In this document: piece by piece, positions 2,215 through 10,163 of the stretch
Layout: each line of letters opens with the position of its first letter
How positions within the stretch are numbered: position 1 is the first letter of the stretch
Assembly: GCA_035937155.1 (NCBI GenBank)
Contig: DASYVJ010000058.1
Coordinates: forward strand, 1,938 to 65,937
Direction of reading: 5' to 3'
From: Candidatus Dormiibacterota bacterium
GTDB taxonomy: Bacteria; Chloroflexota; Dormibacteria; Dormibacterales; Dormibacteraceae
DNA length: 64,000 nt
Notes under the pieces: generated by a model
Seen by the model: the letters and a program-made list of their open reading frames with translations, nothing else
Database searches by the model: none
What the model was told of the DNA's origin: nothing
Made by a program: the position numbers and the translations under genes

Positions 2215-5200
2215 TCACAGGCACACATCTGGAATCGGTGTCAGGGGCGAGGTGCGCAGGAAGCGCTCGTAGCCGAGACCTTCCCCAACCGGGTCGCGGA
2301 TCGGCTGATCGCCGGGCAGGGTTTCGACGGCCAGGCAGCTTAGTGGCGTTTCGGAACCGAGGGCAAGCAACTCCAGAAGCCGTTCGACTTCGGCGTTTGA
2401 CCAGGTGGCGGTTCCCGCGTCGACCCTCAGTCGATCAAACTTGCGCTCCCAACGCTGTGGTTGAGGCACTGCTTGGCGATGTCCGAGCAGGACGTTGCGC
2501 ATGTCCGCGCCGTCGGCTTGGTGAACCTGGGCGTACAGCAGTACCCACAATTGAGTCACCGGCGGGAACGGTCTGAGTGATTGACCTTCGAACGTCGGGT
2601 CCGCAAACGGCGCGTTCACCTCGATGCCGCGACGGTCGCGCAATACTGCGCACAGCAGGGTGGGCATCGGGTGCTGCACGCCGGTCACGCGCAGCGGTCG
2701 ACCGAAGCGACCTTGAGCCGTCGACCAGCCAATGGCATGACCGATGCGCAGTTCGTAGGTGAAAAAGCCGAAAATTGCCGGCGACTCAGGCGTAAGCCCA
2801 CCTGGCAGACGAACCAGAAAATGGCGCGGTGAGTCAGTGGGCAGCATTACTTGCATGGCGCTGAGGCCGGCTTGATCGTCCGACTGGCCCGGCACGATGG
2901 TGCGGATCGGCTCCGGATCGATGGGTAGGGGCGGCTCAGCGGATTCCGGGATTTCTGGCGTCCCGCGGGTCAATACCGGGTCGGGGGCCTGAGCCATCAC
3001 CCGCGCAAAGTAGCTGTCGGCAGGGCTGTCGGGTGGCGCTTCAAACTCGAGCCAGATCATTTTCTGGCGCACGCCGGTCTGGCTGTAAGCCGGATCGCGT
3101 TGATAAGGTGATAGCGCCAGCCCGGCTGAGACCAGTCGCGGCACCTGCGAAGGCGGAGTGGTGATCGGCAGGTGCAAGTCTAACTCGTGTGCTGCATCGA
3201 CCTGCGCGGGCACGTGCCGAAAGACCGGCACGACTTTGTAATGGAATAGGGGCTCGGACGGAAACTGCCCGGCCGGGGGCTGTGGGTCGAAGGAGTCGAT
3301 AAACAGGAGCTCACAGCGATCATGCGGCGCGCCCGCGGACGCTTCGTAAGCGACCGTACGTCTTGGCTCAACCTGGCCGACTTCGACACCATCACGCTGG
3401 ATGCTGAGGTGGTCGAGTCCGTCCCAACTCCAGTCGCGACTCAACTCGAGCCGCACGGGGACCAACCACGCACCTGTGAGATCGCCCAGTGATCCGAACT
3501 GCACGCTGCCACCGTCGGGGCCGAGGGTGTGACGCAGGCCTGGCGCGCATCCGAACAAGATGCGGTGGCCGGGCCGCGCCCGCAGGCCGACGACACCGTA
3601 CACGTCGAGATCAAGCACGGCTGCGAGCCGTCCTAAGGCATTGTCAGGCGCGGCTAGCGCCTTGCCGGCAGTCTTCTGAGCCAGTGCCACCCAACTGTCA
3701 ACGGCTGCTTCGGGCTGCAGGAATATGCCTTCGACCGCCTCGGCGGACGAAACCAGCAGCAGTCCTCGCTCATCGGCGCTCTCCTTGCGCGCTGCCAGCT
3801 GCGTTGCCGGACCATGGCGCACGTCGTCATCCCCGAAGTAGTCAGGCTTGGTGGCCGCCAATGCATTCACGCTGATCCGCACAAGACGAGACGTTGGTAG
3901 CGGAATCGGCCCATTGGGGGGCGCAACCAAGGTTGCGGCGTCGTGCACATCCTGCCAGTCGAGCGCCAAAGTCAGCGGGTCATCTGGGCCTGCCGGAAAC
4001 GGCCGGGTAGTCTGGTACAGCGTGACAAAGCCGTCCGTTGCGGCTGGGCTGGCGACCTGCACGACGATCTCAACGGCCGTCACATCCGGGTCCGGCAGTC
4101 CGACGCCGCGCTTGTCTGCTGTAGCCTGCGGCAGATCGGCCAGCAAATCAGCCGCGGCACCACCTGCCATCACGTACGCCGGATAGCCGAGCCGAGGCCG
4201 GCGCAAAACCACATTGACAGGTGGATTGAGAGGGTCAGGAACAACCGGCAAGCTGGTGTCTATGCGCACAGCCTTCGGGCGAACCCATCGCCGGAAGTGC
4301 AGTGGCGCCAGCGGCTGCGGTGCGGGATTCGCCGGTGCCTCACCCAGCGCCGGACCACCGCCCGTGTGGTCGGTTAACCGCACGCGGAACTCGTAGCTCT
4401 GGCCGTACCGGAGGACGACCGTCGGGTCGACTCCCTCGACAACTGAAGGGGCGTCGATGCCATGCAACCTGGCAGCAACGCGGTCGCGCGCGACAAGCGA
4501 AGGTCCAGTCCAGGCGGTGTAGTAGATGGGGATCCAGAAGGTGTCGGTGGTCTCACCCATCAGCTTGTTGGGCGCGATCTCGACCCGAAATTCGCCGGTA
4601 TGTGATCCGAGGTCGATGCCTTTGACGACCACGCTCGTCGACCCCATCACAAGTGAATGCCACGCCGCGTCGCCCACAAGTCGCCCGTCGACCCGGTAGC
4701 CCAGTACCCCCATCGGGGCATCCTGGATGGCCGCGGCGGGGTCAGTTTGGCGGTTCAGCCACGTCGCAACCTGCTCATCGTCCCACCCAAGCTGGACACC
4801 GTGGTCGTTCGCCGGCCGGGAGCCGTCGTCCTGCTCGGCCAGTGGGTCGAGCTGAGTCGCCTGTCGGGCGTAGACCGCCTTGGCGAACCCGTCGTCGTAG
4901 TCGACCGCCTCGCGGAACAGGGCATCGTAGGACGCGGCTGGGGGAACGCTGGCAACCGGGAATAACACCGAGGTAAACAGACTGCGCGCTACCGGCAAGC
5001 GCGGCACCCGCGCGGCATACGACTTGAGAGCGTCCGGGATGCCCAGCAACCCGGACGCGTCGCTCCCCGCGGCCAAGCTCACATACACCCAGCCGCCGTA
5101 GTCGAAGAATCCCGCGTCTGGCTGAACCTCCAGCGGCCGGACCAGGCCGAGTGCTTCGGCCAGCAGCGGCTGGCGCAGGGCGAGGGCTAGCACCTTGCCC

Positions 5201-8600: not shown

Positions 8601-10163
8601 GGACGAGACGCTTAGCAGGCGCCCGCGCTGTTGATCAAACAGCGCCGCGAGCGAACCGTAACTCGCGGCGTACGGGTCCGGTAGCGTCGGCAATACTCCT
8701 AGCAGGCCATAAGTGAGGATGATGCGGCCAGACGCTAGCCGGATCCCGTCGTACGGGCCGTACAGCAAGAAACCATTCGGGTAGGTAGTGCGCAGCACGG
8801 CGTTGACGAGCGCGAATGCGACTCCGCGTCCGCCTGCGGGCGGGTCCAACGTGCCCTCCACCAGCAGGAACTCCCCCGACGCGGTGGCGATGAACGCGAC
8901 CAGGACCGATGCCGCGTGCACCGGTAGCCGCTGCCCACGCACGTCGACTGGCTTGTCGAGGGTTGCCGACAAGGCGCTGCTCGTCAGCACAGCCTCCGCC
9001 CCACTCGCTTCGGAGAAGAACGACACGGGGAAGGCAAGGTTCCAGCGCAACTCGACCCGGTCATTGCTGCCATTGGCCGGCACCGGTGTCTGCTGGACGT
9101 GCTCGCCGTGAGCCTGCGTGGCAGCAAGCGACAGGCGGCTGCTGTCGACTGCCAACAGCGACGGCCCAAGCTCGACTGCAGCGGTCTGACCAAGCCATGT
9201 CGCGCGAAGCCCCTCGTCGAGCCACAGCAGCAACGCACCAACCCCGCTCGCCTCGCCAAGCGAGGCGGGGTCGATGACCGCCACAGGCAGCCCCCACGCT
9301 GCGTCGCCAACCGCGGCCGAACCTGCCGGCACAAAGAGCTGAGATATGACGTGGCTTATCGCGAAGGGGCTTGATCGTGCGGCAAACGGCACCGCCAGAC
9401 GATGCATTTCCGGGAGATAGCGCACCGGGGCCGAGCTGAACGCGAGCTCGGTATCGAAGCCATATGCCAATAGGCGCGCGGTGTCGTTGGTCGCGAGCGT
9501 CGCCCCGCCGGCTGTGATTGCGAGATGTACTCGGCGCGGTACAGCAACATTTGCCGCTCGAGCATCGCCACCGGGACCGGTCCCGCCGCCCGCCACCTGC
9601 TGTTCAAGCTCGATGTCCAGGTCGACGGTTACTGTTCCAGGAATCACGATCTCGTCGGCGACAATCGGCACTGGCTGGCTGAAGCGGATTGTGCCGCCGG
9701 TCACGCGCAGTCCGGTAGATGAGCCGGCCGGCGCCGTGACCGCCAAGAGCTGGCTGGCGAACCAGATGCTGCCGGCTGGAACCTGGAACGAGGTTGCTGG
9801 CGGTCGCCGGCGGGCACCTACGCGCCTCGCCGCAATCGGCAGTGTCAGGAAGGGGGCAGCTCCCGCGCTGCGAACCAGGCGCACATGGCGAATGGGCTGG
9901 AAGATGTCGATCCACGTATGCCTTCCGGCGCTATCCAGGAACGGCCCCAGACTGCGGTCAATCCGCAAACCAGCCGCCCACGAAGGCAGCGATGCTGCGG
10001 AGCGGGTAGTGAAGACCGGCAGTGACCGCAGATGCACAAGGGGACCGTCGCCGGAGGCGAGCGCATCGGCGACGACCCGCCGCGCCTCGTCAAGTGCGGC
10101 GGCCTGCGCGGGGGCCGTTGGCTCAAGGTCGCCGACTAGTTGGGCGAGATCACCCTCGGTCAT
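5694..10163 (-). CDS. giant hypothetical protein A (1489 aa), function unknown; hydrophobic Gly-rich C-terminal module
   Basis: Uninterrupted 4.5-kb ORF with GGGAG ~9 nt upstream of the ATG. Only 11 nt separate its stop from the next gene. The C-terminal ~170 aa alternate hydrophobic and Gly residues ('LLLGVGLAFDLDAGPFGFKGLLALTFFGFIGDNTLGVGVGFLLQL'). The terminal sequence is 'TCHEVVHGPGEPTC'. Confidence 0.85.
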   Translation of the reverse strand: MTEGDLAQLVGDLEPTAPAQAAALDEARRVVADALASGDGPLVHLRSLPVFTTRSAASLPSWAAGLRIDRSLGPFLDSAGRHTWIDIFQPIRHVRLVRSAGAAPFLTLPIAARRVGARRRPPATSFQVPAGSIWFASQLLAVTAPAGSSTGLRVTGGTIRFSQPVPIVADEIVIPGTVTVDLDIELEQQVAGGGTGPGGDARAANVAVPRRVHLAITAGGATLATNDTARLLAYGFDTELAFSSAPVRYLPEMHRLAVPFAARSSPFAISHVISQLFVPAGSAAVGDAAWGLPVAVIDPASLGEASGVGALLLWLDEGLRATWLGQTAAVELGPSLLAVDSSRLSLAATQAHGEHVQQTPVPANGSNDRVELRWNLAFPVSFFSEASGAEAVLTSSALSATLDKPVDVRGQRLPVHAASVLVAFIATASGEFLLVEGTLDPPAGGRGVAFALVNAVLRTTYPNGFLLYGPYDGIRLASGRIILTYGLLGVLPTLPDPYAASYGSLAALFDQQRGRLLSVSSWEPTRSAFDFVLAPGFGQTTFEVRAAPVEPAAGAADPAALVARGQQDLWPDALKALGSALAFERQHGLILLDVSTNVDQFGVAFQAGVEGGTTVRIESLSLELDGRHLVLLTLPAVQWEVLETQADPDPTFPPRLSFANSGVPSLIRVPTVALVPVHPAAALQRIVDNFATQAPNPASARFTLPFGIVARAELRQPTPFEPRGASVSLNRPRQGTLEGAHQLRIDALDPSLAPDESPSLPGYTAQLPVGRPGSRSALGDSVTEIFNTYLGAAGARPLVPVTRLDLSGYGESLFSDWHNPYHDPTRDAVAVVQARFDVLIGRSAYEVVQVRSYLFPYAVQVVRTITIERRNNAVVTRHDSGWRAVSDGIYDFPSVTPIVTHPGVVPRITNVTHISETGQVVTVDGVEMAAVYFDGDFELDGAPDLVMVKDQFGFVQITAGALIGPTTYASLIATAGALGGPVAANIRVGGGTQAMQVQRVDVGMTPGLAGPEFAMAAWGGPVFPGGGQWSVLRVDSPNAAPRAVAKDRGVPLIRAGAAGSAPPLSSPYRFADPGDLTSPANPAVDYGILHATGTQRVFFPRPKIEATDASRITSTEIPALADPYSLAGSLGLFPELGVTLPFASANWALHVSAQGHYRLELPANTFPAGVGRRTMRQAGSVKSDVDYAGAQVTYEVDTSQPVPWRFRLDRVAKIMNSGSLGDVIRLEANIVAAAGGPTTFDAPKILMGGSLSFVQDLLTILADLGISGLMHVDMTNDWSLKVAETIPFVDATGKPFQIPPLVPEPDIKFDDTGIKVEEKVAPSNDEATFEIGGQPMFAIKAIPGLYVVAIIKFSIKIATQDGTSYTLLLGVGLAFDLDAGPFGFKGLLALTFFGFIGDNTLGVGVGFLLQLSASIDPIISIQISLEGKLALIWACKGLPEETEFSAAKLTFGVEVSICLVFSISFEVETTCHEVVHGPGEPTCALPDVI

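Follow-up and report, generated by a model that had tools for sequence, protein, structure and literature searches.

The stretch analysed here, hereafter the window, covers 64,000 nucleotides (nt) of a Candidatus Dormiibacterota bacterium genome (assembly GCA_035937155.1, contig DASYVJ010000058.1, positions 1,938 to 65,937). Two large open reading frames (ORFs) on its minus strand, gene A and gene B, follow one another directly and form a two-gene unit of ~8 kb, which probably encodes an undescribed two-protein machine (Table 1). Both ORFs lie exactly at the coordinates given by an earlier reading of the sequence alone (the original prediction), and its description of the gene junction is confirmed by the junction sequence, gatTTAGGAGGctggttcATG. 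The TAG stop codon of A (5694-5696) overlaps the AGGAGG Shine-Dalgarno motif of B (5690-5695), and 11 nt separate this stop from the ATG of B. The proposal of one operon with coupled translation is supported, as the overlap of stop codon and Shine-Dalgarno motif recurs in many loci of homologs, among them L001, L006, L007, L008 and L023. Over the loci in general, the gap from A to B is mostly -4 to +60 nt. In the window, GGGAG is positioned 9 nt ahead of the ATG of A. Both proteins are rich in Ala, Leu, Gly, Val and Pro and poor in Lys (1.3-1.6%) and Cys (0.3-0.5%), as had been claimed.

Table 1. Features of the A-B locus and its surroundings, in order of position in the window
Feature	Position	Strand	Description
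TPR-LuxR (GerE) regulator and tandem DUF427 (NTP_transf_9) protein	61-840; 986-1915	+ (both)	Downstream of the module
tRNA 3'-half remnant	2003-2048	-	T-arm, acceptor 3' strand and encoded CCA; ~170 nt downstream of B
Gene B	2215-5682	-	1155 amino acids (aa); acidic, net charge -29; unnamed family; better conserved than A
B C-terminal motif	2218-2274	-	LGxxR[IF]LRTSPLTP[VI]PxxC (family alignment)
B FN3-like beta-sandwich	4348-4722	-	Residues ~321-445; first of several modules (DSSP, weak FN3 match, Foldseek)
B N-terminal domain	4723-5682	-	Residues ~1-320; mixed alpha/beta (alignments, DSSP)
A-B junction	5683-5696	-	A stop inside B Shine-Dalgarno motif; translational-coupling arrangement
Gene A	5694-10163	-	1489 aa; acidic, net charge -37; all-beta; unnamed family
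A C-terminal meander	5736-6245	-	Residues ~1307-1476; nine consecutive beta-strands of 14-18 aa (DSSP of model)
A conserved core	6864-7766	-	Residues ~800-1100; long beta-hairpins, pLDDT >90 (conservation profile, model)
Upstream leader, non-coding	10164-10633		470 nt between A and the divergent XRE gene; locally AT-richer stretches
XRE/HTH_3 regulator, divergent	10634-10960	+	Pfam HTH_3; local context only
Hydantoinase-B fragment	11105-11752	-	215 aa; profile positions 362-519 of 519, C-terminal third of Hydantoinase_B
390-aa protein	18666-19838	+	N-terminal hydrophobic segment; BNR/Sortilin-Vps10/Ycf48-like beta-propeller repeats

There is strong evidence that A and B are real genes. At 64% GC, the probability of a stop-free run of the observed length is ~4e-18 for A (1489 codons) and ~3e-14 for B (1155 codons). 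When compared with the closest non-identical locus (L090; A 85% and B 88% identity), the ratio of nonsynonymous to synonymous substitution rates (dN/dS) is 0.12 for A and 0.10 for B at a dS of ~0.7. Hence, both genes are real and under strong purifying selection.

The A family comprises 111 clusters of proteins of 1400-1800 aa with 26-100% identity, all hypothetical and without Pfam domains, and the window A shares a 90% cluster with a protein from a Candidatus Dormibacteraeota metagenome-assembled genome (MAG). The B family is formed by 649-703 clusters at 90% identity (1150-1290 aa), and an exhaustive hidden Markov model (HMM) search returned 2,123 clusters at 50% identity (E <=1e-3), with 642 at E <=1e-30. 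All named homologs of either protein are labelled 'hypothetical protein'. B is encoded in at least 412 genomes of the one-genome-per-species GTDB set, and 80 loci from these species genomes were listed. They include Actinomycetota, Pseudomonadota, Acidobacteriota, Bacteroidota, Myxococcota, Ignavibacteriota, Gemmatimonadota, Chloroflexota, Cyanobacteriota, Desulfobacterota, Vulcanimicrobiota (Eremiobacterota in GTDB) and Rokubacteria. The hosts are both Gram-positive and Gram-negative (Bacillus, Streptomyces, Proteobacteria, Bacteroidota, Cyanobacteria and others), the monoderm carriers including Bacillus toyonensis, Streptomyces, Kitasatospora and Nonomuraea. B is also found on megaplasmids of Bacillus toyonensis, Tistrella mobilis, Microvirga and Chlorohelix.

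Across this distribution the two genes are strictly paired. By tblastn, 76 of the 77 loci in which enough upstream DNA is available, from more than 12 phyla, have a homolog of A immediately upstream of B and on its strand, so that the co-occurrence check suggested with the original prediction supports its notion of an undescribed two-component module. The sole exception, in an Acidobacteriota MAG (L041, 10001-13093), carries a 5'-truncated B starting at residue 151 and no A; this B appears to be a decayed remnant. Over 73 loci, the identity of A to the window A correlates with that of B to the window B (r=0.976), and B is the more conserved protein in 73 of 73 loci (mean identity 42% vs 34%). 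In an all-against-all clustering of the ORFs of ~80 loci only A and B recur, the next cluster being a generic short-chain dehydrogenase/reductase (SDR) present in 7 loci, and no third conserved gene was found by this clustering or by a survey of neighbours. Horizontal acquisition, which had been proposed, is likewise supported, as the flanks are unrelated between loci even at 85% identity, that is, in the closest relative. A and B form a real, autonomous, horizontally exchanged two-gene module whose two products are always made together.

Two candidates for a third component were rejected as lineage-local: upstream DUF1800/DUF1501 genes occur in three Bacteroidota loci only, and a 467-aa gene in related Streptomyces only. 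A and B were also considered as paralogs, and this was rejected on an A-versus-B profile-profile comparison that gave no homology. The module is also present on a contig labelled Patescibacteria (L024, DATMXF010000117.1), where A is cut at the contig end. Full-length A and B would take up ~8.5 kb, as against the very small genomes of Patescibacteria, and mis-binning is a possible explanation. At another locus, on a 3.4-Mb contig (L091), a type-2 NADH dehydrogenase-like flavoprotein gene (Pyr_redox_2, 18461-19750) overlaps the end of B by 1 nt and may be co-transcribed with B there, an arrangement seen once only.

The window proteins were searched at E up to 1 against Pfam, NCBIfam (June 2026), PADLOC-DB v2.0.0 and PHROGs, and 31 diverse A members and 40 diverse B members were scanned individually with Pfam (E up to 5) and PADLOC. 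A and B had no match in the four libraries. No family recurred among the 71 homologs, in which the single PADLOC match was RmrT (E=0.034). Both family profiles gave sub-threshold matches only against all PDB sequences, for example an FN3con match of B at residues 423-447 (E=0.42 for the whole sequence; 2.3 for the stretch alone). The claim that the pair has no recognisable domains is thus borne out by the libraries and the PDB sequence searches. Longer B homologs were checked for added domains, and one FG-GAP repeat was seen, in one protein only. The Walker A, DEAD/DExH, HNH, YD, RTX, BNR and lipobox motifs, reported as missing by eye, are absent by regular-expression search too. Signal peptides, also reported as missing, are found in none of 84 A and 130 B homologs, and an N-terminal hydrophobic region is found in 0 of 84 A members. 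HEVVH occurs once in A and is not conserved in the family. Nothing relevant to A or B was found in the literature, either with the accessions and locus tags tried or by concept. The module resembles known things in fold class only and is filed under no known system. A unit of ~8 kb under strong purifying selection has been exchanged among at least 12 phyla without a name, a domain annotation, a solved relative or a literature.

Protein B was modelled with AlphaFold (AF2) from an alignment of 130 homologs. The mean predicted local distance difference test score (pLDDT) of 92.6 and the predicted template modelling score (pTM) of 0.73 indicate a defined arrangement of the domains. The protein is conserved over its entire length, with 35-70% identity across phyla, and ~20% of its columns are at least 90% conserved (130 sequences, many phyla). 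Invariant polar residues are densest in the N-terminal domain (K112, C140, E258, Y262, D302, R311), which also carries the motifs YDDGFAK and LGWDDEQ. After residue 320 the model is nearly all-beta and consists of a series of FN3/macroglobulin-like beta-sandwiches. The first of these has an FN3-type pattern, GYRVD...W...LRYGxxYEFRVRLxDxTGGGP, and Pfam fn3 matched neither B nor the 40 members. The earlier statement that there are no immunoglobulin (Ig)-like repeats therefore holds for the sequence and fails for the structure, as B is modelled largely as FN3/Ig-type beta-sandwiches. Foldseek searches of B against the PDB listed gp130, TEP1, CD109, A2M, C5 and lambda gpJ at template modelling (TM) scores of 0.08-0.14 (query-normalised), with a probability of 1.0 for the gp130 FN3 arrays. 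An FN3-likeness of B is plausible at the domain level only.

The likeness of B to the A2M/TEP/complement C3-C5 proteins lies in its similar size and its largely beta-sandwich series. TEP1, CD109, E. coli A2M and C5/C5b are in its Foldseek list with probabilities of 0.8-0.98 at a TM of only ~0.1. However, the CxEQ thioester motif is absent from A and B (regular-expression search), the B model has no alpha-helical thioester domain, neither a signal peptide nor a lipobox is present, and no A2M Pfam match was obtained in the 40 B members. The likeness is regarded as that of generic FN3/Ig folds because gp130, the insulin receptor and Tie2 match equally strongly.

Four conserved Cys and His residues of B are far apart in its sequence, in the N-terminal domain, the C-terminal modules and the extreme C-terminal tail. 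C140 and C1154 are 100% invariant and H982 and H1004 are 98% conserved (codon positions ~5263-5265, 2221-2223, 2737-2739 and 2671-2673, respectively). Judged from the sequence, these four residues could bind a structural Zn or make a disulfide, by which the chain would be clamped into a closed shape. The two proteins had been described as ending in similar tails. In B the tail is a family-wide motif with the invariant Cys, whereas the C-x-LPDV tail of A is confined to the nearest clade.

Protein A was modelled over residues 290-1489 only, from 50 homologs, with a pLDDT of 84.8 and a pTM of 0.66, and is nearly all beta. Its conserved core carries the motifs VPVTRIDxSGYGASxFSxW, GRTAxEVVQV, VVRTITIxR, RxDSGW, HPGVV and YFDAD. 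D593, S595, E640, R803, R842, E846 and R869 are invariant in the protein, and D805 and H901 are nearly so (>=90%). The strands of the C-terminal meander are amphipathic, one face being strongly hydrophobic and the other polar, with many Gly, Ser, Thr and charged residues. In family-averaged Kyte-Doolittle values, the hydropathy alternates strictly between ~+2.5 to +3 and ~-0.2 to -1.8, and the hydrophobic maximum of A is near the C-terminus in most homologs.

Foldseek matches of A in the PDB include the ushers FimD/PapC, LptD, porins, PgaA (probability 0.98), SlpA and the beta-belt of ApoB100; in BFVD, A matches tail fibres and porin-like proteins weakly. The outer membrane (OM) beta-barrels, of which FimD/PapC, LptD, porins and PgaA are the best PDB matches of A at weak E and low TM, and the autotransporters, with their layout of a passenger followed by a C-terminal barrel, share with A a long amphipathic antiparallel meander at the C-terminus. 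They differ from it in several aspects: the family has no signal peptides, it has monoderm members (Bacillus, Streptomyces), the C-termini of A are variable and non-aromatic across the family, without the aromatic beta-signal, and no OM protein or autotransporter Pfam match was found. The structure prediction and Foldseek comparison recommended with the original prediction thus gave a generic beta-sandwich/beta-barrel resemblance only, at a TM of 0.04-0.14 (query-normalised). Of the known families that it had named beforehand as possible identities (Tc toxin subunits, extracellular contractile injection system (eCIS) and type VI secretion system (T6SS) baseplates, AsmA/TamB and phage tail proteins), none was matched. 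On these models, which have no global match, A and B are probably new protein machinery and not a diverged copy of something known.

The interpretation favoured here, as a tentative one, is that A and B form a stoichiometric complex in which B acts as a scaffold or recognition subunit and the C-terminal amphipathic sheet of A engages membrane or lipid, possibly as a pore. As two subunits of a self-contained mobile module, A and B would be produced from one transcript in roughly fixed proportion, and we infer that their heteromeric complex would be assembled in the cytoplasm. The compact and highly conserved B would provide the rigid scaffold of the complex or serve in recognition. The working part would be played by A, whose nine-strand meander could offer a continuous hydrophobic face to a lipid bilayer and bind to it or insert, for example as a beta-barrel-like pore if the meander closes or oligomerises. 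On this reading, the target could not be an outer membrane because the family occurs in monoderms and has no export signals. The absence of signal peptides, together with the occurrence in both Gram types, points instead to the cytoplasmic membrane of the producer or to a foreign membrane. The former might be attacked from inside, in a gasdermin-like suicide or stress response, and the latter after release, in a role like that of binary toxins.

The likeness to beta-pore-forming toxins (PFTs) and binary toxins (aerolysin/ETX-MTX2, anthrax protective antigen (PA)-type, Tc) and to bacterial gasdermins is functional only. It consists of large proteins without signals, two genes, amphipathic beta-hairpins and Ig-like binding modules, and one locus of the module is on a megaplasmid of the Bacillus cereus group. 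However, no activating protease domain was recognised and no toxin-island context was seen. ETX_MTX2 was matched in 1 of the 31 A members at E=2.4, with no such structures among the Foldseek matches listed, and no MACPF domain was matched in A or B members by Pfam, which sets them apart from MACPF/CDC proteins. Tc toxins differ in their VRP1, TcA_TcB_BD, SpvB, TcdB and RHS domains, none of which was found with Pfam and NCBIfam, and in the YD motif; no Tc structure is among the best 50 Foldseek matches listed for A or B.

Several findings weigh against the membrane-engaging complex. The alternating hydropathy of the strands would equally fit a face buried on another sheet, on B or around a lipid cargo, and closed antiparallel barrels would not be expected to have nine strands, the number being odd. 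The Foldseek matches of A are weak (E 1e-4 to 1e-2, TM 0.04-0.11, query-normalised). A subunit that senses receptors or phages would not usually be as highly conserved as B, and the hosts include phototrophs and oligotrophs, in which toxins are less expected. The module is unmatched by the anti-phage defence HMMs of PADLOC-DB v2.0.0, which does not cover systems described after 2023. B is absent from 50,697 phage genome records, and defence, secretion, lysis, phage and transposon functions are not enriched among the 119 immediately flanking ORFs.

A bolder form of the favoured interpretation, itself rather improbable, is an envelope-independent membrane-attack module, common to Gram-positive and Gram-negative bacteria, in which a TEP/complement-like beta-sandwich scaffold, B, would license A to insert its amphipathic sheet, already folded, into a bilayer as a new kind of beta-barrel pore. 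The attack would come from the cytoplasmic side, in suicide or stress, or after release, as a new class of binary toxin. If the sheet of A does engage membranes, the module would represent a new class of membrane-active complex that needs no secretion system; if the membrane-attack form is true, both the fold family and the way in which the pore is formed would be new. Cultured hosts are available in Massilia violaceinigra, Bacillus toyonensis DC11 (plasmid pDC11_1), Tistrella mobilis, Streptomyces xylophagus and Corallococcus terminator, and hence the module is directly testable.

Alternatively, A and B may build a large soluble assembly in the cytoplasm, such as a cage, ring, lattice or scaffold, that has nothing to do with membranes; the hydrophobic face of A would then be an interface or an enclosed core. 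This is unlikely, although several findings fit it. Conservation of B over its whole length, with the fraction of near-invariant columns given above, is as expected of a surface that is mostly interface; the predicted architecture of B is compact (pTM 0.73); and coupled production is consistent with fixed proportions. Neither protein carries an export signal, both are acidic and occur whatever the envelope type, their neighbours are ordinary housekeeping genes, and no catalytic motif was recognised in the library scans or by regular expressions. However, such an assembly has no precedent, no Foldseek match to cages, vaults or encapsulins was found, and it leaves unexplained why the most hydrophobic amphipathic strands are concentrated at the C-terminus of A. 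The module is rare and patchily distributed, in at least 0.2% of species, which speaks rather for an accessory role.

A may also be a lipid-binding, lipid-transfer or lipid-storage protein whose sheets line a hydrophobic groove or wrap neutral lipid in the manner of ApoB/vitellogenin-type or AsmA/TamB/Vps13-type proteins, with B as partner or regulator. The Foldseek matches of A include ApoB100, LptD and P47, a TULIP-like protein, the amphipathic periodicity is conserved, and giant proteins without enzymatic motifs that are dominated by amphipathic beta-sheet recall ApoB100/vitellogenin and AsmA/TamB/YhdP. Genes for Phasin_2, a polyhydroxyalkanoate (PHA)-granule protein, are at 2 of the 119 neighbour positions, too few to be meaningful and thus very weak evidence. 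This explanation is quite unlikely, in view of the missing Pfam matches to AsmA, DUF490 (TamB), Chorein_N and Vitellogenin_N (31 A members, E up to 5), the missing N-terminal membrane anchor of A and the low probability of the ApoB match (0.11-0.38, TM ~0.1). Moreover, monoderm members need no lipid bridges between membranes, and no context of lipid metabolism is seen.

The invariant residues raise the further question of an enzyme with a new fold (a Cys/His hydrolase, a transferase or a metal enzyme), formed by B or the core of A and acting on A or on a cellular polymer, in which case A and B would be a couple of enzyme and substrate or of enzyme and adaptor. The clustering of invariant polar residues in the N-terminal domain of B, its four conserved Cys and His residues and the invariant or nearly invariant residues listed for A are compatible with catalysis. 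However, no catalytic family was matched by sequence or fold, and the Cys/His set fits a structural Zn site or a disulfide equally well. A similarity of A to RNase Sa was rejected, being sub-threshold (E=0.16) and without conservation of the catalytic Glu. An enzyme is considered very unlikely.

Highly improbable, in turn, is a non-classical export of the proteins to serve as a surface or extracellular adhesin, an S-layer-like coat or a binding device derived from phage tails. FN3/Ig-like arrays are typical of surface proteins, the invariant Cys pair of B could make an extracellular disulfide, and weak Foldseek matches to Deinococcus SlpA, phage tail fibres and lambda gpJ were obtained, the last two being all-beta proteins of ~1100-1500 aa with FN3 modules that are matched weakly by both A and B. 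Against this, Sec, Tat and lipobox signals are absent in more than 200 homologs, genes of type I, IX or VII secretion systems (T1SS, T9SS, T7SS) or for a sheath, tube or tape measure are not found nearby, and the conservation across phyla (35-50%) is far above that usual for surface arrays. Phage tails in particular are disfavoured by the lack of tail genes nearby, of PHROG matches and of B in the phage genomes, and by Foldseek probabilities mostly <0.7. Likewise, the Baseplate_J, gp25, VgrG and TssF-G domains of eCIS, T6SS and phage baseplates were not found. Finally, that A and B are chance open frames or decaying pseudogenes can practically be dismissed: long shadow ORFs do abound in high-GC DNA, but run probabilities of ~1e-14 to 1e-18, dN/dS of 0.10-0.12, full-length homologs in hundreds and AF2 pLDDT of 85-93 rule it out.

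The leader upstream of A is presumably a promoter or regulatory region in common with the divergent XRE gene. It has stretches that look AT-richer, for example ttgcatttacagaagtgttaattgtgtgg, as compared with ~64% GC in the window, and may contain operators for the XRE protein. Consensus scans for promoters and terminators at the window locus were uninformative, the only sigma-70-like match in the leader being weak and on the plus strand. The XRE gene had been reported upstream and is confirmed there, with a Pfam HTH_3 match. Only the near-identical loci L087-L089 have kept this divergent arrangement, and HTH_3 is not among the families that recur near other loci in the neighbour survey.

The tRNA 3'-half remnant reported downstream of the module is real and is unrelated to the intact tRNA-Ala(GGC) at 24719-24794. 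ARAGORN finds no intact tRNA at its position. It is possibly the scar of an old integrase-mediated event. A reading of the remnant as one arm of an att pair was rejected, as no second copy was found in the window, and the repeats bounding the cassette are chance-level matches only within the window. The hydantoinase-B ORF probably represents a pseudogene that has been truncated, as would fit with gene decay beside the module.

The accessory character claimed for the surroundings holds for this window and not for the family, as the neighbours elsewhere are ordinary metabolic and regulatory genes. The 119 flanking ORFs fall into 79 Pfam families, none of them in more than three loci. The TPR-LuxR and DUF427 neighbours of the window are not associated with the module in other genomes. 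Consistent with mobility, some loci adjoin transposase or toxin-antitoxin genes, and PIN, RelE/RelB and HipA genes are among such neighbours. Farther upstream of A, the window also encodes the 390-aa beta-propeller-like protein listed in Table 1.

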